A stretch of 10,171 nucleotides of DNA from an uncultured archaeon (GTDB lineage: Archaea; Asgardarchaeota; Thorarchaeia; Thorarchaeales; Thorarchaeaceae): contig CAZYLT010000040.1 of NCBI GenBank assembly GCA_964648855.1, positions 1-10,171 of the forward strand, in the 5' to 3' direction. Of the stretch, positions 1 to 10,057 are shown piece by piece. Position 1 is the stretch's first letter. The number at the start of each line of letters is the position of its first letter. Below the pieces are notes generated by a model, which searched no databases, was not told where the DNA came from, and saw only the letters and a program-made list of their open reading frames with translations. A program made the translations under genes and the position numbers.

Positions 1-219
1 GGTAGGCAGTTGGGCTGGGGCGGCACAGGGCTGACAGGAGATCAGCCCTGACCAATGCTGAGCTCAGAGGCGATGGAAACGTCTCGTTGAAATCAAGGGT
101 ATAAGCTCGGCTGACGGGTTCCCGAACAGCAACGGAACCCGAGACGAAAGTCTGGCCTAGCGAACTCTTACTAGCCAATTGTGAGCGGTAGGAATGACAA
201 AAAACTTACCCCAGGGGTA
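1..219 (+). rRNA. rrl: 23S rRNA, domain V, exon upstream of the intron (5'-truncated by the window)
   Basis: P-loop region GGCTGGGGCGGCAC (about 13-26), TCAAGGGTATAAGC, and TTACCCCAGGGGTA, which matches the conserved UACCCCAGGGAUAAC leading to A2451 (E. coli numbering). The variants are archaeal-type. Confidence 0.97.
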
Positions 220-958
220 ATCTTTAGCCGGTCGCTGAAAAGCGAGGACAATAAATGCAAATTTGCCAACAAATGAGTGGAGAAAATGGAACGCTGGAAC
301 TTACGAGATGATGAGGACCTCAATGAGGTATCAAGACCTCTTGAAGACCTCAGTCTACGATTCGCCAGCGAAAACGTTGCCTATCTCGCAGGTATATCTG
401 AGGATGCCCACCTCGGTAAAGGTGGAAAGGAAGGATACGTCTTTGATATCGAATCCAAATCAGAACGATGGCTTACTGACATCGTTATGCCTGCGCTCAA
501 ACTTGAGTTTCCTAAGGAAAAGAAGGTTACAGTCAAAAAGCGTGGAACCAGACCTGAGTATCGTATTCAGGTGTGGGATAAACATCTCGTTGAGACTCTC
601 CGAGTCATATCTGAGAGACCCGAGATAATACGATTATGGGGTGTCAAAGAACAACGAGCATGGGTGTGCGGTCTTGCTGATGCAGAAGGCTCAGCAACTC
701 GTAACACCGACAACCAACCACAATTCAGTATCTATAATCAAAGCCTGAAGAAACTTAGAATAGCAGGCGAGATCCTTGAAAGAGATGGTATCCACTTTGG
801 CCTCTACCTACCTAAAGGTAGAGACGTGTGGCAGATGTATCTAACAGGACGCGAGAATCTAAAGCGTTTCTTGGATGTGGAAGCTGGGGTGAGACATCCC
901 GAGAAGCGTTCACGCTTACTGCAATACCTCGCTGAGTAACGCCGACTAAGGACCCTAA
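220..958 (+). other. Archaeal bulge-helix-bulge (BHB/BHL) rRNA intron, 739 nt, between A2450 and A2451 (E. coli numbering)
   Basis: Intron ends pair: TCTTTAGCCGG 221-231 with CCGACTAAGGA 942-952. The central 4-bp helix is GGGG 214-217 / CCCT 953-956, with 3-nt bulges TAA 218-220 and AAA 957-959. Cutting after the second base of each bulge regenerates GGGGUAACAGAG. There is an internal GAAA tetraloop hairpin TCGCT-GAAA-AGCGA at 232-245. Confidence 0.9.
277..939 (+). CDS. Intron-encoded two-motif LAGLIDADG homing endonuclease (alternative ATG start at 286)
   Basis: The ORF lies wholly inside the intron. It has motifs AYLAGISEDAH (degenerate) and AWVCGLADAEGS about 100 aa apart, plus a typical C-terminal 'HPEKRSRL' segment. 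Confidence 0.92.
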   Translation: MEKMERWNLRDDEDLNEVSRPLEDLSLRFASENVAYLAGISEDAHLGKGGKEGYVFDIESKSERWLTDIVMPALKLEFPKEKKVTVKKRGTRPEYRIQVWDKHLVETLRVISERPEIIRLWGVKEQRAWVCGLADAEGSATRNTDNQPQFSIYNQSLKKLRIAGEILERDGIHFGLYLPKGRDVWQMYLTGRENLKRFLDVEAGVRHPEKRSRLLQYLAE

Positions 959-1452
959 ACAGAGTTGTCGCGGGCAAGAGTTCATATCGACCCCGCGGCT
1001 TGCTTCCTCGATGTCGGCTCTTGGTATCCTGGCGTTGCATAAAGCGCCAAGGGTGCGGGTGCTCACCGATTAAAACCGAACGTGAGCTGGGTTTAGACCG
1101 TTGCGAGACAGGTTGGTTTCTCTCTATTGGGACTGTCGGATGTCTGTCGCTAAGATGATACCGGTACGAGAGGAACGTATTGTCGCGGCCAATGGTGTAC
1201 CATTTGTCCGAGAGGGCACTGATGGGTAGCTAAGCCGTAACGGATAACAGCTGAATGCATCTAAGCTGGAAGCCGGAGCATAAACGAGACATCCACTTTA
1301 CAGACTCCCTTAATTGGGCGACGGGGTCGGCGACGACAACGTTGCGTCTGGAAAACGAGGACTCATCTAGAAGAGATGGTTAATAGGGCAGGGGTGTAAG
1401 CTTCGAGGTTCGCCGAGAAGTTCAGCTCACTGCTACTAATGTCCGAGGCTAG
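959..1452 (+). rRNA. rrl: 23S rRNA, 3' exon (rest of domain V and domain VI); 3' end approximate
   Basis: Contains CATATCGAC, CCTCGATGTCGGCTC, GTGAGCTGGGTTTAGACCGT, the sarcin-ricin loop GTACGAGAGGAAC (about 1164-1176), GCTGAATGCATCTAAG and the terminal GTGTAAGC...TACTAAT...GAGGCT. Confidence 0.96.
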
Positions 1453-1556
1453 CAGATCGAAAGTGCAGCTCGCACGTACCTAGAGTTGCGAGTGCGACAA
1501 GGATTGTAGTAAGTGTATATGCTCAGAGAATGCCTTCATCCAATGTAGCTATTTTT
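1393..1556 (+). repeat. Direct repeat copy 1: last ~60 nt of 23S plus ~100-nt structured 3' trailer (resident copy)
   Basis: 1396-1493 is identical to 7033-7130. 1453-1555 aligns with 3354-3455. Confidence 0.95.
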
Positions 1557-1560
1557 AGTT
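1548..1560 (+). terminator. Probable oligo-T terminator of the rRNA transcript
   Basis: GCTATTTTT sits at the end of the structured trailer, where similarity among the three repeat copies ends. It is retained at 7187-7195. Confidence 0.45.
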
Positions 1561-1854
1561 CATTCTAGCATATGACAGCTGGTTTGATATAGCACCTACC
1601 ATCCCGATGACTTCTTTGCTTCTGATGCTCTCCAAAAGCTATACCATCAAATGTCCGACTGTGAAGTGGAGAGCAGAATAATTGACCTCTTATTGGCTAT
1701 CATTCCTATCTTCTAAAAAATTAATTTATGATTGAATCTCTAATGGTGAATATTGCCTTAATATCCGAGTTTCATCCATTCTAGTTAATTCTAATCTTAT
1801 CCTACGCCTATATATGCGTCCTCTATCCATAATAGAACTAGTGTGGGAGAATAA

Positions 1855-2733
1855 TTGAGTATTAGTTTAACGAAATCTAAAAGAGTTCTACTACTAGCTA
1901 TTTTACCCCTGCTATTTATGGCATTTATAGCACCGATACCGAGCGCCAAGACCAGTGCCCAAACACAGTCTTTCAATACAACACGAAACAAACTACTAAG
2001 ACCTAGGATAGGTTCTTTTGACGCTACACGTAGCTTCGATTATCAAGAGAATCATGCTAAAATCACAATTTCCGGAAATGTATCGCTAGATAACGACAAG
2101 AACATTGCAAATTATAAACAGAAAATAGTTATCCGTGATAGCGCGAGTAATAAAAGTGTGAATGAAGTAAGAGAGGTCAGTAGGTCTATTCCGGTCATAT
2201 CTATGGATTTTGAGAGCACAACATCATCCAATAGTATGGTGCCAGCGCTTGACGACTATGGGACTTTTGTTTACTTCACATGGCATGGCATAACTCATAT
2301 GATTCGCACCTATGGAAACAGTCAACAGTGGGTCAAATACGAACATCCTGATAATTACTATACTTATCATCCTCAACAGTGGAATCTCCAATGGGATCAA
2401 TCTGTTGGAAATGGATACGGGATGATTCACCATTCACAATCAACAGTGTATCAAGCCATCCAAGCTAACAGCATTTGGGTTGTAGCGATGGCAATCGCAG
2501 ATGCTGCAATTGGTATGTACTTGCTTACCTTGGCAGCTATAACACTTGCAGCATGGATAGTCGCAGGTCTTCTTGCTATCCTCACTGTCTACTTTGTTGC
2601 GGTAGGTTGGTGGCTGGAACATGTTCTTAAGGCCGAACAAGATGACGGATGGCCATATACATATTGGAATGGCGTGTTTCTACAGGCATCATATGGTGGC
2701 TGGAAGGATCTCTGGATATATTCATGGGGATGA
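1855..2733 (+). CDS. Secreted or membrane protein of unknown function: signal peptide, soluble region, C-terminal hydrophobic helices (candidate archaeocin-like protein)
   Basis: 292-aa ORF with a TTG start after GGGAG. It has a KSKR + hydrophobic N-terminus and an Ala/Leu-rich hydrophobic stretch of about 45 aa followed by a Trp/Tyr/Gly-rich tail. Confidence 0.8.
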   Translation: MSISLTKSKRVLLLAILPLLFMAFIAPIPSAKTSAQTQSFNTTRNKLLRPRIGSFDATRSFDYQENHAKITISGNVSLDNDKNIANYKQKIVIRDSASNKSVNEVREVSRSIPVISMDFESTTSSNSMVPALDDYGTFVYFTWHGITHMIRTYGNSQQWVKYEHPDNYYTYHPQQWNLQWDQSVGNGYGMIHHSQSTVYQAIQANSIWVVAMAIADAAIGMYLLTLAAITLAAWIVAGLLAILTVYFVAVGWWLEHVLKAEQDDGWPYTYWNGVFLQASYGGWKDLWIYSWG

Positions 2734-3281
2734 ATGATATGGATTCGAAAAGCCTCAAGCTGGATTCAATCGAGGGAAATTATTTGCTCTCTATACGCTT
2801 CTTACCATTCACCATTCTGGACATAGCATTAGCTGTGGTTAGCACGCTTGGGATCACATTAGCTTGGATCCAAAGGCCTTCTTCTACCTGGATCTATGAA
2901 ATCAGTACTATGGACGCCGTCATCCTGTATGTTATCTTGGCATTCCTCGGCTTCTCGGTGGGAGTTTATTTACTGCGTAGATTCGAAAAGAAGTTTATCA
3001 AGAAAGAAGCAGTTCGTGTTTCTATTCCCTACATGATACTTGTACTGAGCCCCCCATTCTCTGTGGTATCGGTAGTCTTGGGCTTTGCGGTCAATACTGC
3101 TCTTGGCGGATTTGGTGGGCTTGCATGGAGCTATTTGTTCTATGGACCGGGATTAGGACTCTTACTCGCTCGATTTCTTTACTTCATTCATAGGTCACGG
3201 CTTTGGACGTTCAGACCCATCCCCAATGAGGAACCGGAAGCTTTTCCGAATGTCAAGCAATACATTGTTTCAAAACGGTAA
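2730..3281 (+). CDS. Integral membrane protein, about 4 TM helices (183 aa from the ATG at 2730), translationally coupled to the upstream gene
   Basis: The ATG at 2730 overlaps the upstream TGA (ATGA) and is in frame with the listed 2649..3281 ORF. There are four hydrophobic segments separated by a basic loop (RRFEKKFIKKE). Confidence 0.8.
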   Translation: MNDMDSKSLKLDSIEGNYLLSIRFLPFTILDIALAVVSTLGITLAWIQRPSSTWIYEISTMDAVILYVILAFLGFSVGVYLLRRFEKKFIKKEAVRVSIPYMILVLSPPFSVVSVVLGFAVNTALGGFGGLAWSYLFYGPGLGLLLARFLYFIHRSRLWTFRPIPNEEPEAFPNVKQYIVSKR

Positions 3282-3353
3282 ATTCGTTCGATGTCTAGAC
3301 AATTCAATATAATGCATATCTAGTTGTTTGGCTACTATAGAGAAGCAGTACAA

Positions 3354-3455
3354 CAGATTGAAAGTGCAGCTCGCACGTACCTAGAGTTGCGGGCGCAGCA
3401 AGGATTGTAGAACGTGTATATGGTCAAGAACTGCCTTCATCCGATGCAGCTATTT
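3354..3455 (+). repeat. Direct repeat copy 2: diverged copy of the 23S 3' trailer
   Basis: CAGATTGAAAGTGCAGCTCGCACGTACCTAGAGTTGCG...CAAGGATTGTAG...GTGTATATG...TGCCTTCATCC...AGCTATTT aligns with 1453-1555 and 7090-7194. Confidence 0.93.
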
Positions 3456-3539
3456 ATTCATACAATATTAGTTCAACCAAGAACTGGGGATTCTCTATTA
3501 GATTAGAATGTTTGTACATGAGTGGTTGGTGCGCACATA

Positions 3540-4031
3540 TTACATGAAGCGCTTTACAATTTCTCTTATCTCAGGGTAGGACAAAATGAGCGCTACACTC
3601 ATCAGGACAAACCCCATTGAGATGACCCTCGGATGTGGTGTCGCTCGGTACACGTTAATATTCACCCAAGATTCTGATGGGCTGATATTCGATTGGGTAA
3701 CGACGAGGAAGTAGGCTTTGTCGCTAGGTAGATCGATAACGCCTTGGTAGTTGCTTGTGTTCTCTATAGATACAATAGGGGATACATTCTCCATAGAGTA
3801 TTCTCTGAACAACTTCATTCCGCTTTCATTATCAAACAGGTAGAGAGAGAAAGTACTCTCAGTCAGAGACTGTGCGTTCACAAGGATATCACCGCTGTTC
3901 ATGACTATCATACCGCTGAACTCACCATCCTTATTTGTGAAGTCGTTCCCTCCTATTCTACTGGGGGCAAATGAAAATAGGAGAAGGAGAACTCCAATGA
4001 ATAAGAGTGGTTTTGAAAGGCGTTTCCGCAT
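3540..4031 (-). CDS. Membrane protein with N- and C-terminal TM helices and an extracellular beta-rich domain (163 aa)
   Basis: Likely ATG at 4031 (MRKRLSKPLLFIG...) after an SD-like GGGGTG, just downstream of the permease stop codon. Both termini are hydrophobic. Confidence 0.78.
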   Translation of the reverse strand: MRKRLSKPLLFIGVLLLLFSFAPSRIGGNDFTNKDGEFSGMIVMNSGDILVNAQSLTESTFSLYLFDNESGMKLFREYSMENVSPIVSIENTSNYQGVIDLPSDKAYFLVVTQSNISPSESWVNINVYRATPHPRVISMGFVLMSVALILSYPEIREIVKRFM

Positions 4032-4036
4032 TTTGT

Positions 4037-4834
4037 TCACACCCCTGTTCGCCGGAATACTGCATAACTGGCCGCCATTAGCAAAACGACGAGGATACAT
4101 GACATGCCCATAGCCATTATGATATCTATAAGCGTGATATCTATAGAAACGTATACCCATATTGGACCAGTACCAATGTACTTGCCAATCACTCCTGGTA
4201 GAAATAGAATCATTTTCATGAGTGGCGGTGCATTAAGCCAAGTGAAAAGAAAGAAAGAGCCAAACATGATAGCAATAGAACCAAATGAGGTCGCCAATGA
4301 ATTCCTAGTAATACCACCAACCAAGAAAGCAATAGCTGTCGTTAAAGAAATATGCACCCAAAGCGAAACTAAAACAATAACAGCAGATGCTAAACCATAG
4401 ACGAGAGGGACAAAGAAAAACACACTAGATATACATCCCATAACAGCCGCCATCCCCACCCAGAATACTACATTCATGTACTTCAATAGAAAAAGGTCAC
4501 CTCTCTTAATCGGAAAAGAGAGCAGCGTCCGAAATAACCCACTATCATATCCCCCTGCAAATGTGAAGCCAACAACAAGTGGAACGATAATCATCAAAGG
4601 AAAGATGAAATTTGCCGCTGAAGTCACTAAGACTGAGATACCCATGTCTTTTATGGCATTAGAGATCAACTCTAGTCTACCTATATCTGGACCTGAAATT
4701 GTGATGTTTCTGGACGAGTGTGTCAAGGCCGAATACATGCCTGCAACAAGAAATGTTCCTATTATGGCAGCAATTGCCGGAAATGAAAACTTGCTCTCCA
4801 TCTCAAATTGAATGACACTCTTCTTTTTAGTCAT
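4037..4834 (-). CDS. ABC-2 type transporter permease
   Basis: About 6 TM segments and the motif 'YDSGLFRTLLSFPIKRGDLFLLKY', typical of ABC-2/NosY-like permeases. It overlaps the ATPase gene. Confidence 0.9.
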   Translation of the reverse strand: MTKKKSVIQFEMESKFSFPAIAAIIGTFLVAGMYSALTHSSRNITISGPDIGRLELISNAIKDMGISVLVTSAANFIFPLMIIVPLVVGFTFAGGYDSGLFRTLLSFPIKRGDLFLLKYMNVVFWVGMAAVMGCISSVFFFVPLVYGLASAVIVLVSLWVHISLTTAIAFLVGGITRNSLATSFGSIAIMFGSFFLFTWLNAPPLMKMILFLPGVIGKYIGTGPIWVYVSIDITLIDIIMAMGMSCILVVLLMAASYAVFRRTGV

Positions 4835-5774
4835 GTTCTGTTTGAGCTCCTATCACCTTTCGATATACTTCTTCAAGACTTCTGCTTGGTTCAATCTTGT
4901 ATATCTCAATATCTTGTTGGACCGCAATATCTCTAACCAATGATTCGATGTCTCCTTCCAAATCAGAATGCCCTTCTACTACCAAACTGGCAACTCCAAG
5001 AACCAGCGTTTCCTCAATGTTTGCATTCTCTTTTAGGTGCTTGGAGAGCTGGTGAGCGTCAGAAGTTATTATTTGATACCGATTTCGAGTGTGCTTTGCT
5101 ATTAGCTTATCCACTGGTCCATAATCAAAGAGGCGTCCCTTCTTGATGAAGGCTACTGAATGACATGCGCGTTCTAGTTCAGATAAAATATGAGAGGAGA
5201 TTAAGAAAGAGATATCCTCCTCTTTGTGAAGTTTAACGATAAGACTCACAACTTCATCTCGTCCTCGAACATCGAGATGAGAAGTGGGTTCGTCAAGAAA
5301 AATGAGACGAGGATTTCCTACGAGGGTTTGAGCGAATCCGAGCCGCTGATACATTCCAGCAGAAAGATGTCGAATCTGTTTATCGGCTGCATGCAAAATA
5401 CCCACCCTTGATAGTATTTCATATATGTCGCTATCTGTACCATGGAATCTGTTTGCCGCTTTCAAAAAGGCAGATGGAGTCATAGAGGGCGGAAAATAGG
5501 CCTTCTCATGCAAAACTCTTACTCGCCTGCGTACCTCTATGGATTCAGTAACAACATTATGACCCAAGACCCTTGCGATACCTCCATCAGGTCTAAGTAG
5601 GCCTAACAATGTTCTGATGAGAGTTGTCTTTCCTGCGCCATTCGGTCCAATCAGACCAGTAACACCCGACTCTATATTCAGTGTCAGTCTATCCAATGCT
5701 TGCAAATTACCATATGATTTTCGTAGCTCTCTTATGGATATTACAAACTCTGGTACTGTCATACTCTCATCCAC
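4827..5774 (-). CDS. ABC transporter ATP-binding protein (exporter type)
   Basis: Walker A GPNGAGKTT, signature LSAGMYQR, Walker B IFLDEPT, H-loop SSHILSELE. Confidence 0.96.
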   Translation of the reverse strand: MDESMTVPEFVISIRELRKSYGNLQALDRLTLNIESGVTGLIGPNGAGKTTLIRTLLGLLRPDGGIARVLGHNVVTESIEVRRRVRVLHEKAYFPPSMTPSAFLKAANRFHGTDSDIYEILSRVGILHAADKQIRHLSAGMYQRLGFAQTLVGNPRLIFLDEPTSHLDVRGRDEVVSLIVKLHKEEDISFLISSHILSELERACHSVAFIKKGRLFDYGPVDKLIAKHTRNRYQIITSDAHQLSKHLKENANIEETLVLGVASLVVEGHSDLEGDIESLVRDIAVQQDIEIYKIEPSRSLEEVYRKVIGAQTEHD

Positions 5775-5849
5775 GTATGAATTCGCTTTGACTGGTATTT
5801 CTTCTAAGGGGTTGTTTTACCAGATACTACTGACAAGTCTGTTTCACCA

Positions 5850-6326
5850 TTAATAATCAGCTATGACATACGGGGTATCATCAAAGGTCCAGGTATGAAC
5901 TGTGTTATCGCCATCATCAAGGCAATCAACAAATCGAAGTTCCAGCGTAGAACATGTTGCATCGGTAATTAGCCAGTCCAGGTCACTACTCCAAATATCG
6001 AAATACGCGATATCAGTCCACGTAGTTTGTGTACCCCATCGATATTGTGCCAGTAGGCTCTCCGCATTGGGCCAGCCAGGAGAAACCCCTACGAAGTCTA
6101 TATGAATGTAGTAATCGTCACCATCGGTTCGAATTCCTGAATAATAGAATTTGAACTTACAACGATAATCATCGTCAACATTCTCTTCAGTCGCCTTGTA
6201 TTGACCTGATTGTTCGGTCCAAGAACCCCATGTTACACTTGGTTCGTCATCGTTATAGGTTGACCTGCCTGCCATAACAGGACCCACAGAACCAAGTATT
6301 ATCACAGCTGCTACAAAAATGGGCAT
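5850..6326 (-). CDS. Small acidic secreted protein of unknown function (ORF can extend to a GTG at 6359)
   Basis: ATG at 6326 is preceded by AGAGGAG. A signal-peptide-like PIFVAAVIILGSVGPVMA is followed by an Asp/Trp/Tyr/Thr-rich, beta-like mature domain. Confidence 0.75.
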   Translation of the reverse strand: MPIFVAAVIILGSVGPVMAGRSTYNDDEPSVTWGSWTEQSGQYKATEENVDDDYRCKFKFYYSGIRTDGDDYYIHIDFVGVSPGWPNAESLLAQYRWGTQTTWTDIAYFDIWSSDLDWLITDATCSTLELRFVDCLDDGDNTVHTWTFDDTPYVIADY

Positions 6327-6579
6327 TATGTTACTCCTCTTACCCAAGTGTAATCCCACCGACTAACAGAAGGGCAATGCCCCTCATTGGTAGGTAAATG
6401 GTACACCATTTCCAATAAATGTTTTGTATTTTCAAGTTGACTTCGATTAGACCTATCATTTTTATGGCTTCTTGAAAGTCATCGACAGTCACAAGAGATT
6501 TACATGAAACAGATAGGATACTATTTCAGAAACATACTGCAGAAACCCTTGCTTACTAGTATTTAGCCTACGATAGAGT

Positions 6580-7000
6580 CATCATTATTGAGCTTAAACA
6601 TTTACTCATAAACTAAAGGCAAAACTGGTGAATTGCATTGCCGTTCTCTAAAGATTTGTACAATTTCTAAGATCAGATAGGTTTCTAACATCCATCGTGC
6701 GATCATGGCTCCACTCTATGGAGGAAAATCATAGATGCTATAAGATTCATGCGAAATCGGCGGGGGCATAACCCCTTGTCGCTCTAAGCAATAGACCCCC
6801 CATTTGCCTCCCAGACTTGTCATGTTCACAGTGATTGTGGGAAACATATTGAGAGATGGTCACCAACAGAGAGAAAGGATGGAGAGGACTTTTGGTGTGA
6901 AGAGTGCGATGAATATTTCCACGCAGGCATCAATGCCGCTCGCAATTCCATTCATGTACAAGATAACCTATCCAGCACCATTCCTGAACGGAGGCCTTGA
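6580..7000 (+). pseudogene. tnpB: Decayed tnpB (RNA-guided RuvC nuclease, IS200/IS605/IS607 family), C-terminal portion; 5' boundary uncertain
   Basis: Manual translation across frameshifts: IAVL*-DL (about 6637-6658, RuvC-II-like, weak), WRKIIDAIRF...*AIDP, then SQTCHVHSDCGKH...FWCEECDEYFHAGINAARNS...RRP* (TGA 6998-7000). This matches the TnpB pattern DPxxTSQxCxxCG...FxCxxC...ADxNAAxNI, with the RuvC-III Asp changed to Gly. Confidence 0.8.
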
Positions 7001-7029
7001 AATCCAAGGTTGTGCTAATAACAATGAAC

Positions 7030-7195
7030 GGCGTAAGCTTCGAGGTTCGCCGAGAAGTTCAGCTCACTGCTACTAATGTCCGAGGCTAGCAGATCGAAAG
7101 TGCAGCTCGCACGTACCTAGAGTTGCGAGTACGCAGCAAGGATTGTAGTAAGTGTATATGGTCGACAGATGCCTTCATCCGGTGCAGCTATTTTT
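7030..7195 (+). repeat. Direct repeat copy 3: displaced 23S 3' end plus trailer and T-tract (attR-like)
   Basis: 98 bp identical to 1396-1493, preceded by GGC versus GGT at 1393-1395. The distal trailer differs by substitutions and small indels. Confidence 0.96.
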
Positions 7196-7329
7196 CTTCA
7201 TTTCAAGATTCTTCAGCGTGCTGTTCAAATTTTATTCTAGAAAAGAAGTATTGATATTGAACATACAACTATACAACAGTGAGAAGGTTTTCTAATACTA
7301 CAAGTAGCATGCTTTGGGGATCACTGGTG

Positions 7330-8880
7330 ATGAAAAGGGGCTCTGGGTCAATCCTAATGGCATATATCATTGTTCTAAACCTAATTGGTTTCCTATCATT
7401 TCCATTATTGGATAGCAAGCAGCATCCTTCATTATTAAGCGACAGCGGAATTGGTGAGTATTCTGTTGCTGATGAGAGTTCGCCTATATCCATCCGCTCA
7501 GATTCTGAACTCATGGCCAAGGCTAAAACTGAGAGGTGGCCAGGAACAGGGACCATTGATGCTCCTTACCTTATTGAGAACTTAACAATACGAAGTGATG
7601 TAACCTGTATAAGAATTCAACACACATCTCTATATTTCCGGTTGGGCCACAGCCGTCTCCTGTCAAAGAGTGAATCCAATGGAGTTGGTCTGTACTTTCA
7701 CAATGTGACAAATGCAGTAGTGAAGAATATGACTATTGCAAACAAGAGAATCGGAATGGTGATCCAAAGCTCGAATAATTGTGTCTTCTTGAAAAACAGT
7801 GTGAAATCAATCTCTGATGCCGGTATTAAAATTTCAGACTCAAGCTACATGAAAGTTTTACAGAACACAGCAAAACGAGCGTATATTGGCTATGAACTAT
7901 CTCAGTTGAGATATTCCATTCTCAACAAAAATAATGCCACACTCATTTCTTCAAATGCAATAGATTTCTATGATGGTACTGATTGTGTGCTACACGCTAA
8001 CACCATCAATGCAGTTCAAGGATCCGGCTTGATAATACGTCAATCGGACAACCTTTCTATCAGCCTTAACACCGCATATCTCTCCGAGCAGGATGGGTTT
8101 GTACTCCAAGGCCTCCACTCTTGCTCGTTCACCAATAACACATCAGTGCTGAATGGGGCTAATGGCTTCTTCTTTGATGATTGTGATCGTTGCACAATTT
8201 ATGGGAACATAGCTGTTCAAAATGTGAGAAATGGCATATCCGCTCCGCGCCTCCAGAATGACTCCATTATTCATAATCTTCTCTGTGCCAACGGTGGTTT
8301 TGGTCTGCAATCTGGCTATGCCAGATTCCCCTCGGTGCTATCAGATAACTCGCTGGGATGGAATAGGGGAGGTAATGCTTGGGAAAATGCTGATGAGAAT
8401 ATTTGGCTAGGAAACAAATGGAGCGACTATGACGGCTCGAGAGAATACAGCATTTCTGGCTGGGCAAACGCAAATGATACAAATCCTTCATTGCTAGTAG
8501 ACACTCTATCTCCTATGATTTATCAGCCAGAAGAACTAGTGGAAGTCAAAGACAACGAAAGCATTGTTATACAATGGCATATCTGGGACTGTCAACCATC
8601 GAGGTATGAGATATACCTTAATGGAACTGAAATTGAGGCAGGAGATTGGAATCGTCCGGATATCCATATCTGGCTAGGACCATTTGAAGAAGGCACCTAT
8701 ATCATTATGTTTCAGGTTTTTGACGAGAATGGACACTCGGCAACAAATACAGTGCTTGTCTACGTGTCGGCAAGGTACAACGTTTCGATGAATTCCTTTT
8801 TCTTGCGATTAGCAATTGGGTTGGTTCTAATCTCTTCATTTTCAATTGTATACTGTTATTTTCGAAAGAGGGATGTATGA
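7330..8880 (+). CDS. Secreted, C-terminally anchored right-handed parallel beta-helix (NosD/CASH-like) protein with an Ig-like domain (ORF open from 7279)
   Basis: Signal or TM N-terminus, 'PISIRSDSEL...WPGTGTIDAPYLIENLTI' cap, repeated G-hydrophobic/Asn-ladder PbH1 units, 'GNKWSDYDGS...DTNP' motif, 'DTLSPMI...YEIYLNGT' Ig-like module, and a C-terminal TM followed by RKRDV. Confidence 0.9.
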   Translation: MKRGSGSILMAYIIVLNLIGFLSFPLLDSKQHPSLLSDSGIGEYSVADESSPISIRSDSELMAKAKTERWPGTGTIDAPYLIENLTIRSDVTCIRIQHTSLYFRLGHSRLLSKSESNGVGLYFHNVTNAVVKNMTIANKRIGMVIQSSNNCVFLKNSVKSISDAGIKISDSSYMKVLQNTAKRAYIGYELSQLRYSILNKNNATLISSNAIDFYDGTDCVLHANTINAVQGSGLIIRQSDNLSISLNTAYLSEQDGFVLQGLHSCSFTNNTSVLNGANGFFFDDCDRCTIYGNIAVQNVRNGISAPRLQNDSIIHNLLCANGGFGLQSGYARFPSVLSDNSLGWNRGGNAWENADENIWLGNKWSDYDGSREYSISGWANANDTNPSLLVDTLSPMIYQPEELVEVKDNESIVIQWHIWDCQPSRYEIYLNGTEIEAGDWNRPDIHIWLGPFEEGTYIIMFQVFDENGHSATNTVLVYVSARYNVSMNSFFLRLAIGLVLISSFSIVYCYFRKRDV

Positions 8881-9197
8881 TGAAAGCCATCATTCTCCCA
8901 ATATCCTTCTCCCATGGAGCTGTTTCCTTTTTCGTGCATTCAAGGAGAGAGAAAACAACTAAACCAATCGTGAAGGAATTAAGCTGCAAAACACTAAGCC
9001 AATAGTGATATACCTACTTCCGACTTGCTTCTTGTTACTATTTTTCTTCCTGCCATATCAACTACCAATCTATCGTTGGAGATATTACTCTGAACTAGAA
9101 GTCACACTCAAAGCTATGGTAGCGAGGCTTATCAAGGCTCGATTATGGATTTGGGAAGACATCGTTTCCTTTGTAGTAGAACCCTATTCTATTGGTC

Positions 9198-9629
9198 CTA
9201 CTCATCTCGCCTTTTTTCGATGAATTGAACAATATGTTGAGCTAGAAGATCGATATCTCCGACATTCTCTTGAAGAATCGAATACAAAATCTCGTTGTCG
9301 AAATCTCCATAGAGGTGTACGATTCGATTTCTGAACCTTGCCATCTCTTGAAGGCTCTCAGCGAGATTTGTGGGCAGGACTTGATTCTTCTCGAGGATTT
9401 CGAACACAGATGCATAATCCTGTGGCCTCTCCCATCCCATAGATCCTATGATGTGATTGCCAATATCGAGACAAATCTGAATCGCTTCCAATAGGTAGTA
9501 TTTCGCAGCTCCCAATTTGATTCTGTCAGCAAGAAAGGTTTCTTTTTCCTCTTCAGCGATATCTCGAAGCAAGCTCATGGTTGTTGTCAGTCTAGCGAGT
9601 TTCGCATCCATGACATTCATATTATTCAT
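9198..9629 (-). CDS. hepT: HEPN (DUF86, HepT-like) RNase toxin
   Basis: RX4HXY motif RNRIVHLY. The gene overlaps the upstream nucleotidyltransferase gene by 4 bp. Confidence 0.92.
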   Translation of the reverse strand: MNNMNVMDAKLARLTTTMSLLRDIAEEEKETFLADRIKLGAAKYYLLEAIQICLDIGNHIIGSMGWERPQDYASVFEILEKNQVLPTNLAESLQEMARFRNRIVHLYGDFDNEILYSILQENVGDIDLLAQHIVQFIEKRRDE

Positions 9630-10057
9630 AGTTTGCCAGTCTCCAGGATTCTCTGATGCATATTCCGATTATAGTCAGCAATCATTGGCTTGAAATCAAG
9701 AAAGTGCATCACTGCTCGGTCCTCGAATTCAAGTCTTCTCCTTTCATCTTTACAGAGGACTACCTTCCCCTCTGATATGACTCGAAATTGTAGCTCAAGA
9801 AACGCCTCATTGAGGTTTCTCACATCCACGTCATGCCCAAGCTGTCCAGATAGCTTTTCCGATAGTCGCAGTAATTCCCTCTTCCGTTCCTTGACAGGGG
9901 CTTCTTTTGTCCAGAGAATCGCAATATCCAAATCACTGAGAGGGGTTGCTTCTCCTCTCGCATATGATCCGTACAGATAGCATGCTATCACAGAGCTATC
10001 TTGAATCATCTCCTCTAGGGCACTAGAAACCTTATCGAGGGATATTTCTTGAACCAA
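9626..10057 (-). CDS. mntA: Minimal nucleotidyltransferase (MntA-like) antitoxin
   Basis: GSX10DXD motif (GSYARGEATPLSDLD), a third acidic strand VDV, and position directly upstream of the HEPN gene. Confidence 0.92.
   Translation of the reverse strand: MVQEISLDKVSSALEEMIQDSSVIACYLYGSYARGEATPLSDLDIAILWTKEAPVKERKRELLRLSEKLSGQLGHDVDVRNLNEAFLELQFRVISEGKVVLCKDERRRLEFEDRAVMHFLDFKPMIADYNRNMHQRILETGKL

Follow-up and report, generated by a model that had tools for sequence, protein, structure and literature searches.

Origin of a decayed TnpB element end beside a displaced 23S rRNA tail in a Thorarchaeota genome

Can a TnpB element home under RNA guidance into the ribosomal RNA genes (rDNA) of Asgard archaea? 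The question is raised by contig C40 (CAZYLT010000040.1), which makes up the whole stretch of DNA analysed here (10,171 nt; the window) and belongs to a Thorarchaeota (Asgard) metagenome-assembled genome of 3.1 Mb in 62 contigs (GCA_964648855.1; 94.6% complete). The genome has one 23S rRNA gene, within which the contig begins, and several kilobases downstream a remnant of tnpB directly adjoins a displaced copy of the 3′ end of that gene, referred to here as a 23S tail. An earlier note on this DNA had proposed that the island between the resident and the displaced tails may be one cargo-carrying TnpB element, with a left end that rebuilds the 23S terminus, a guide that cuts unoccupied 23S alleles and a single base, C7032, that could protect the occupied allele.

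We examined the remnant, its relatives and the surrounding repeats. It is probable that the locus holds a single decayed insertion of an element composed of tnpB and a giant partner gene, at a hotspot of small cassettes bounded by 23S tails, and that it is not an rDNA-homing system.

The tnpB remnant, its right end and its guide slot

The tnpB of the window is a dead pseudogene fragment, 5′-truncated and stop-ridden. Its translation matches PF07282 (the Cas12f1-like TNB domain; positions 6719–6946, 31.8 bits, above the cut-off of 26.3) and keeps the C-terminal Zn-ribbon of this domain (CHVHSDC...CEEC), while positions 6500–6991 align in a single frame with residues ~533–711 of intact relatives of ~700 aa (33–48% identity; tblastn, blastp). 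RuvC-I and all sequence before residue ~533, that is the 5′ three-quarters of the gene, are missing. In-frame stops occur at 6557, 6614, 6629, 6668, 6686 and 6785, ahead of the terminal TGA (6998–7000), and the RuvC-III motif reads FHAGINAARN where all relatives have FHAD(V/I)NAARN, a change of the catalytic D to G. Neither the RuvC catalytic triad nor the open reading frame (ORF) is intact in this copy. The earlier note had thus correctly recognized a tnpB remnant which reaches 7000 next to the 23S copy and has lost a catalytic residue; the frameshifts that it described do not hold, as the remnant aligns in one frame and truncation plus stops suffice to account for it.

Upstream of ~6500 we found nothing in the window that resembles tnpB or its giant partner gene. 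The genome itself has neither a paralogue of the remnant (tblastn) nor an intact TnpB of its family (six-frame search), and its other TnpBs are only 23–40% identical to this family, over short stretches. Relatives were recovered from other genomes. When the 70-aa C-terminal frame was compared with longer proteins by a word-based method, there was no match. Searching 61 genomes of the same taxonomic family in six frames, by contrast, recovered more than 130 matches, which are spread over 33 genomes with up to 15 in each.

The end of the element was located from these relatives. In 27 of them and in the window, the right end is shared as ...CAATGAAC-G(G/A)-(T/C), after which the flanks diverge completely; the longer terminus shared before G(G/A)-(T/C) by the same copies is TTTGTCCAACTTACAATGAAC / TCCAAGTTTGTCCAACTTACAATGAAC. 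Occupied and empty versions of the same site were available in two cases. Copies in G020:C6 and in G078 are inserted at AAAAG-GA-TTATGAAAAG, which is uninterrupted in G093, G091, G089 and G092, and the copy in G065:C9 is inserted at TTCAT-GG-TACGC, also with an empty counterpart. The loci of these site pairs, in the genus of G020, carry the labels L110 and L116 against L117 and L120–L122, and L115; the left end at L110 begins TTATGAAG..., which resembles the right side of the target, TTATGAAAAG.

From the empty sites it follows that the GG/GA core and the base after it derive from the target. After the ...AAC that closes the element proper come a two-base core common to element and target and then a base that belongs to the target; the crossover took place at the GG/GA core without a long target duplication. 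Among the 28 copies listed, the window counted, 24 have T as this first flank base and the other 4 have C.

Applied to the window, the right end falls at 7029, the core GG at 7030–7031 and perfect 23S identity begins at 7033, where 98 of 98 nt (7033–7130) are identical to 1396–1493. When 1393 onwards is compared without gaps to 7030 onwards, the only mismatch before offset 101 lies at offset 2 (T1395 versus C7032). The resident sequence at 1391–1400 is GGGG-T-GTAAGC, and the 20-mer GTAAGCTTCGAGGTTCGCCG is found in the 3.1-Mb assembly only at 1396 and 7033. A right end at 7029, an insertion at a GG that maps to the GGGG run 1391–1394 and a sole difference over 101 nt had all been read from the letters of the window; the first is now supported by the conserved terminus and the empty sites, the second is reasonable since the core is target-derived, and the third agrees with the ungapped comparison.

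The last 200 nt of 27 copies were aligned (alignment A3) and examined for a conserved RNA structure. They contain a hairpin (TCCAG..CTGAA) and a long-range GGAC/GTCC helix, both with compensatory changes: at pair 148–165, CG (14 copies) alternates with UA (12) and GC (1), at pair 152–161 GC (21) with CG (4) and GU (2), and at pair 168–203 GC (19) with UA (5). This structure fits a putative omega-RNA (the guide-carrying RNA of TnpB) that would run to the end of the element and on into a variable guide stretch. Covariation across the copies therefore favors the scaffold that had been proposed for this region. In the window it has decayed: the hairpin has one broken pair and the long-range helix has two. 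The hairpin (A3 columns 148–165, ~6973–6990 in the window) lies inside the last tnpB codons, P-S-A-V-x-G-R; its many compensatory changes mean that these positions are constrained by the protein and by the RNA at once.

TnpB takes its guide from the DNA that immediately flanks the right end of its element. Since the right end here directly abuts the tail, the guide slot would hold 23S sequence, with a perfect match to the resident gene from 1396 onwards, and the guide had been placed over the 23S copy for good reason: the scaffold stops at the right end and the flank from 7033 is 23S. Such a guide would apply to a hypothetical active ancestor of the remnant.

The 23S-tail array and the homing proposal

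The region downstream of the sole 23S gene is a hotspot of stacked small cassettes, and a 23S tail copy with its trailer delimits each of them (Table 1). The repeat unit consists of the final ~65 nt of 23S and a trailer of ~100 nt that extends to a T-run, in direct orientation. It is present five times in the assembly, three times in the window and also at C47:6624–6761 (minus strand) and C24:27236–27369, so the repeat beside the tnpB remnant is not a chance match. All copies share one T-run as their end and differ in their 5′ starts, which are equivalent to 1396, ~1421, ~1426 and ~1450. The displaced tail from 7033 onwards has the helix sequence of its own genus, unlike the tails of relatives.

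The array continues beyond the window. The last 55 nt of C40 (10117–10171) are the end of contig C47 (L128, 6817–6871), an exact 55-nt overlap, and once this is counted, C47 in reverse orientation adds a fourth serial tail copy, ~70 nt outside the window. Beyond this copy lies ordinary chromosome, in the form of a 2-oxoacid dehydrogenase operon (E3, E2, E1beta, E1alpha).

A 23S tail was detected in 44 of the 61 genomes, many of which have several copies, up to 12 per genome and often serial downstream of 23S. None of the 40 displaced tails fetched from relatives is preceded by a TnpB end; tail arrays are therefore independent of TnpB. Relatives of the 169-aa cargo protein of cassette B also adjoin 23S tails without TnpB (G012:C18, G061:C133 and G046:C32), which makes the cargo of the island ordinary cassette cargo. 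Arrays of 1–4 kb cassettes split by partial 23S tail and trailer were seen in the relatives G012, G042, G051, G015, G069, G044 and G019. Several displaced tails in relatives come after genes that end in a membrane anchor (..VKKR, then stop).

These arrays are reminiscent of tandem integrative elements at the 3′ ends of tRNA genes (att arrays), where direct repeats of the 3′ part of a structural RNA likewise separate cargo, end at the transcript end and vary in their 5′ extent. They differ in that the target is the 23S tail plus trailer, the cassettes are only 1–4 kb and no integrase was found, either in the array of the window or beside the other tail copies of the assembly. We found nothing relevant in the literature on 23S-tail integration in Asgard archaea. 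Integrase-free cassette arrays of this kind, common in this archaeal family, are the odder biology of the neighborhood; TnpB gives no explanation for them and they merit a separate study.

Does the TnpB end then mark a system that homes into the tails? Several observations speak for it: there is no gap between right end and tail, the guide slot corresponds to 1396–1415 of the resident gene, the insertion is at a GG, as for elements moved by serine recombinases, and an exact 98-nt repeat brackets the island. Nevertheless, the rest of the evidence makes such homing very unlikely. We searched 86 family genomes for the right end joined to a 23S tail (pattern AATSAACGRYGTARGC, the right end plus GTARGC) and found this junction in the window only; the right flanks of intact homologues are unrelated DNA and not 23S, the junction does not recur, and the tail arrays are free of TnpB. 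A second match to the pattern, in G023:C121 (L124, 1480–1520), consists of a right-end remnant ..GTCCAAGTTTGTCCAACTAATAATGAACGGT followed by GTAAGCA and was rejected as a 7-nt chance match: its flank has no Rfam match, and 64 of 500 shuffles reach its score against the 23S tail of that genome. A TnpB fragment on the rRNA contig of G046 was also set aside, being flanked by non-rRNA DNA 4 kb from the 23S gene.

The island, moreover, does not have the composition of one cargo-carrying TnpB element. The window lacks a left-end-like motif, the giant gene and a recombinase, and the tail copy at 3354–3455 divides the island into two ordinary cassettes, the cargo family of one of which recurs without TnpB. 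Intact relatives show neither a repeat of the right flank, which was absent from the far side of ten long loci apart from an inverted 43-nt tRNA-His piece in L104, nor a rebuilt target copy at the left end, and the sole resolved left junction, that of L110, adjoins plain host DNA. The idea of a left end that restores the 23S terminus thus has no parallel among them.

The proposed marker of occupied alleles fares no better. All 18 resident 23S ends that carry the motif, including that of the window, have T at the position equivalent to 1395 and none has C, and position 7032 is the first flank base, which is T or C in the family whatever the flank.

Rearranged tails also invite the question of whether the assembly is correct. 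In principle, 1494–7130 (5,637 bp) could be a circular or population-variable element with one tail copy. The exact repeats 1396–1493 and 7033–7130 (98 nt) exceed the apparent k-mer of the assembler (55), the contig starts in 23S and ends with an overlap of exactly that length, which is typical of a graph break, and the genome is a metagenome-assembled one in 62 contigs. On the other hand, the assembler threaded the repeat twice in one contig, and similar serial arrays are found in many relatives, large contigs included. We regard such an artefact as highly improbable; the juxtaposition of right end and tail would be real even so.

Dedicated rDNA-homing elements look different. R2 retrotransposons, endonucleases of the I-PpoI type and LAGLIDADG intron endonucleases recur at the same rDNA site and leave the rRNA functional. 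The remnant resembles them in lying within DNA derived from an rRNA gene, and a true LAGLIDADG intron is found in the same 23S gene, but the TnpB junction is unique, lies in a displaced, non-functional tail copy and has no rebuilt terminus.

The TnpB family and its giant partner gene

Intact genes of the family encode proteins of 699–731 aa with TNB and OrfB_IS605 domains, which score below the curated TnpB cut-offs (71–75 bits versus 100 for guided_TnpB, and 36 versus 350 bits for NCBIfam IS607_TnpB). Most intact copies are arranged head-to-head with a giant gene of 1,560–1,940 aa. No Cas1 or other Pfam domain was detected in the giant protein, even when it was searched as four segments at E up to 5.

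The giant gene of the family shares homology (31% over 1,579 aa) with those adjacent to the distant TnpBs on C21, C19, C28 and C4 of the genome under study. There, the intact TnpB genes are of 555–593 aa and also lie head-to-head with their giants (C21 at ~9.8–19 kb, C19 at ~37–46 kb, C28 at ~5–12 kb and C4 at ~177–184 kb). Downstream of tnpB, the loci on C21, C19 and C28 show ...CAGAAGT, 11–15 nt of other sequence and then GTTCACTC. This is the published pattern of the aCas1-associated TnpB elements of Asgard archaea (groups Cas1H-Asgard-1 and -2; Altae-Tran et al. 2023, PNAS, PMC10691335), in which tnpB is followed by a conserved T, a hypervariable stretch and a conserved GTTCACTCA motif. 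On C21 and C28, a tRNA-like sequence lies on the opposite strand within ~60 nt after the GTTCACTC pattern.

Because the giant gene of its family is homologous to giants beside TnpBs that show this pattern, we file the remnant, on sequence comparison, with the aCas1-associated TnpB elements, the Cas1 nature of the giant protein being putative. The likenesses are a Thorarchaeota host, a tnpB head-to-head with a giant gene, multiple copies per genome and a single conserved T (C in some copies of our family) before the hypervariable stretch. The differences are a TnpB of ~700 aa, a scaffold that ends ...CAATGAACGGT and is unlike those of the other TnpBs of the genome, and the absence of a motif similar to GTTCACTCA past the variable stretch: no conserved motif was seen there in any of the 28 flanks. 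Furthermore, two family copies carry a serine recombinase of the IS607 type, Pfam finds no Cas1 in the giant, and the window has only a dead 3′ fragment.

The two copies with a recombinase (MerR helix-turn-helix plus Resolvase, beyond the giant gene) are L108 and L111, and they agree with the insertion machinery that the earlier note had supposed. In the other eight long loci examined the recombinase is missing or degraded, and it is absent from the window. The left ends carry subterminal repeats which match those of the right end in inverted orientation and co-vary with them in each element (TCTAG-type in L108, TCCAA-type in L111). The order of a complete element is left end, tnpA(Ser), giant gene, tnpB and right end, and it spans ~8.6 kb in L108 (G008:C18, about 10130–18730); L111 (G019:C7) has the same complete order. 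These complete loci suggest an IS607-like element that carries a giant "aCas1-like" gene.

Members of the IS607 family share with ours the TnpA with MerR helix-turn-helix and resolvase domains (in ours at L108 and L111), the two-base core (GG/GA here), subterminal repeats at both ends, and a right-end TnpB whose RNA scaffold reaches as far as that end. Our family differs from them by the extra 5-kb giant gene between tnpA and tnpB, by the lack of tnpA in most copies examined and by a TnpB of nearly twice the usual size. TnpB with its omega-RNA in ISDra2-type (IS200/IS605) elements also takes the guide from the right-end flank, and by that rule an insertion in 23S DNA would give a 23S guide; unlike those elements, the family has no Y1 transposase, and the window copy is a pseudogene.

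An association of the family with tRNA genes was considered and rejected, as a tRNA is near only 5 of 31 loci and in inconsistent geometry. At L104 (G052:C17), the right end is followed after 95 nt by a full tRNA-His, and an inverted partial copy of 43 nt lies just past the giant gene, so that the two pieces (9458–9500 and 17621–17694, in tnpB orientation) bracket the element in inverted orientation. One may still imagine that giant-gene/TnpB elements of Thorarchaeota land where structural-RNA genes end (at the 3′ ends of tRNA genes and, in the present case, at the 23S tail), that their guides match the functional gene and that cuts repaired from ectopic tails build and reshuffle cassette arrays. 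If true, this would be an RNA-guided, recombination-driven capture of cassettes at rDNA; we consider it a far-fetched conjecture, with hardly any chance of being right.

Taken alone, one dead transposon end is of modest interest. The comparison around it, however, provides base-pair-exact ends, the core, target sites and a covarying scaffold for a large family of Asgard TnpBs (~700 aa, next to a giant gene and in some cases accompanied by a serine recombinase), and such data on ends, core and scaffold are what reconstituting the system requires.

Probable history of the locus

We infer the following order of events for the single insertion. One element of ~8–9 kb (left end, possibly a serine recombinase, the giant "aCas1-like" gene, tnpB, omega-RNA and right end) would have entered a native tail copy at the GG of GGGG-T-GTAAGC, equivalent to 1393–1394. 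Everything left of tnpB codon ~533 would then have been deleted, and point decay would have brought the six stops, the loss of the catalytic Asp and the loss of scaffold helix pairs. As the abutting tail is identical to the resident one over 98 of 98 nt beside a badly decayed tnpB, it may have been kept so by gene conversion with the resident gene or result from recent recombination between tail copies. Conversion would halt at the edge of homology and thus leave 7032 unconverted.

Some points weigh against this history. As its left junction has been lost, the insertion into a tail is an indirect reading, and the element and the tail might instead have arrived jointly. A decayed tnpB beside an identical tail can be explained only by assuming, in addition, gene conversion or selection that acts on the tails. 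The GGT of 23S right at the junction and the preference of the family for GG-T fit a genuine choice of site, without proving it. Finally, the array contains no integrase, as far as found, that could move cassettes.

In a different account of the remnant, insertion was directed to tails as a repeated and harmless landing pad, favored by the GG-T site and by the many copies of the target, the guide then matched the functional 23S gene, and the nuclease, being toxic, was quickly killed by selection. The family does prefer G(G/A)-T, a site that is present here in 23S as GGGGT; the guide slot matches the sole 23S gene perfectly; the copy is thoroughly inactivated by truncation, six stops, the D to G change and broken scaffold pairs; and the genome retains no cognate TnpB. 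Yet there is one such junction among more than 130 copies and 86 genomes, with no preference for tails visible, and cutting of the resident 23S would depend on the transposon-adjacent motif (TAM) of the family. As many family copies elsewhere, at unrelated sites, are equally truncated or stop-ridden, no special cause is needed for the decay. We therefore hold this account, as a whole, to be unlikely; selection against an active copy that targets the only 23S gene is possible but not needed by the single-insertion history. In either case the remnant shows a guide slot that in nature came to hold sequence of an essential single-copy gene, which makes self-targeting as a limit on element survival testable.

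The coordinates of the remnant, the repeats and the other features of the window are collected in Table 1.

Table 1. Features of the 10,171-nt window (contig C40)
Feature	Position	Strand	Evidence or remark
23S rRNA gene, 3′ part	1–1458	+	Rfam LSU_rRNA_archaea, 467.9 bits, model positions 2326–2987
23S intron, 762 nt	171–932	+	interrupts the Rfam LSU match
LAGLIDADG ORF, 220 aa, in the 23S intron	277–939	+	Pfam LAGLIDADG_3
Repeat copy 1: resident 23S tail and 3′ trailer to T-run	1393–1563	+	sequence comparison
GG in resident tail that corresponds to the insertion core	1393–1394	+	within repeat copy 1
Stretch matched by the would-be guide slot of the remnant	1396–1415	+	within repeat copy 1
Repeat copy 2, equivalent to 1453–1554	3354–3455	+	lies between cassettes A (1.8 kb) and B (3.6 kb)
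Cassette B cargo: four ORFs (206 aa, 265 aa, 315 aa, 169 aa)	3540–6359	-	
ABC ATPase, 315 aa, cassette B	4827–5774	-	
169-aa protein, cassette B	5850–6359	-	
tnpB pseudogene, last ~165 codons only	6500–7000	+	one frame, six internal stops, RuvC-III D to G
Right end / omega-RNA-like scaffold	6833–7029	+	alignment A3, RNAalifold pair counts; subterminal repeats, terminal ...CAATGAAC
GGC: core GG and first flank base C7032	7030–7032	+	family alignment, empty sites; resident 23S genes all have T here
Repeat copy 3: displaced native 23S tail and trailer, distal trailer diverged	7033–7202	+	equivalent to 1393–1564 when read from 7030
Would-be guide	7033–7052	+	within repeat copy 3
Cassette C	7279–10057	mixed	tail copy on C47 comes next
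Beta-helix/NosD-like protein, cassette C	7279–8880	+	
HepT ribonuclease / MNT nucleotidyltransferase toxin-antitoxin pair, cassette C	9198–10057	-	

Within the resident 23S gene, the intron that bears the LAGLIDADG ORF is placed in the peptidyl-transferase region.

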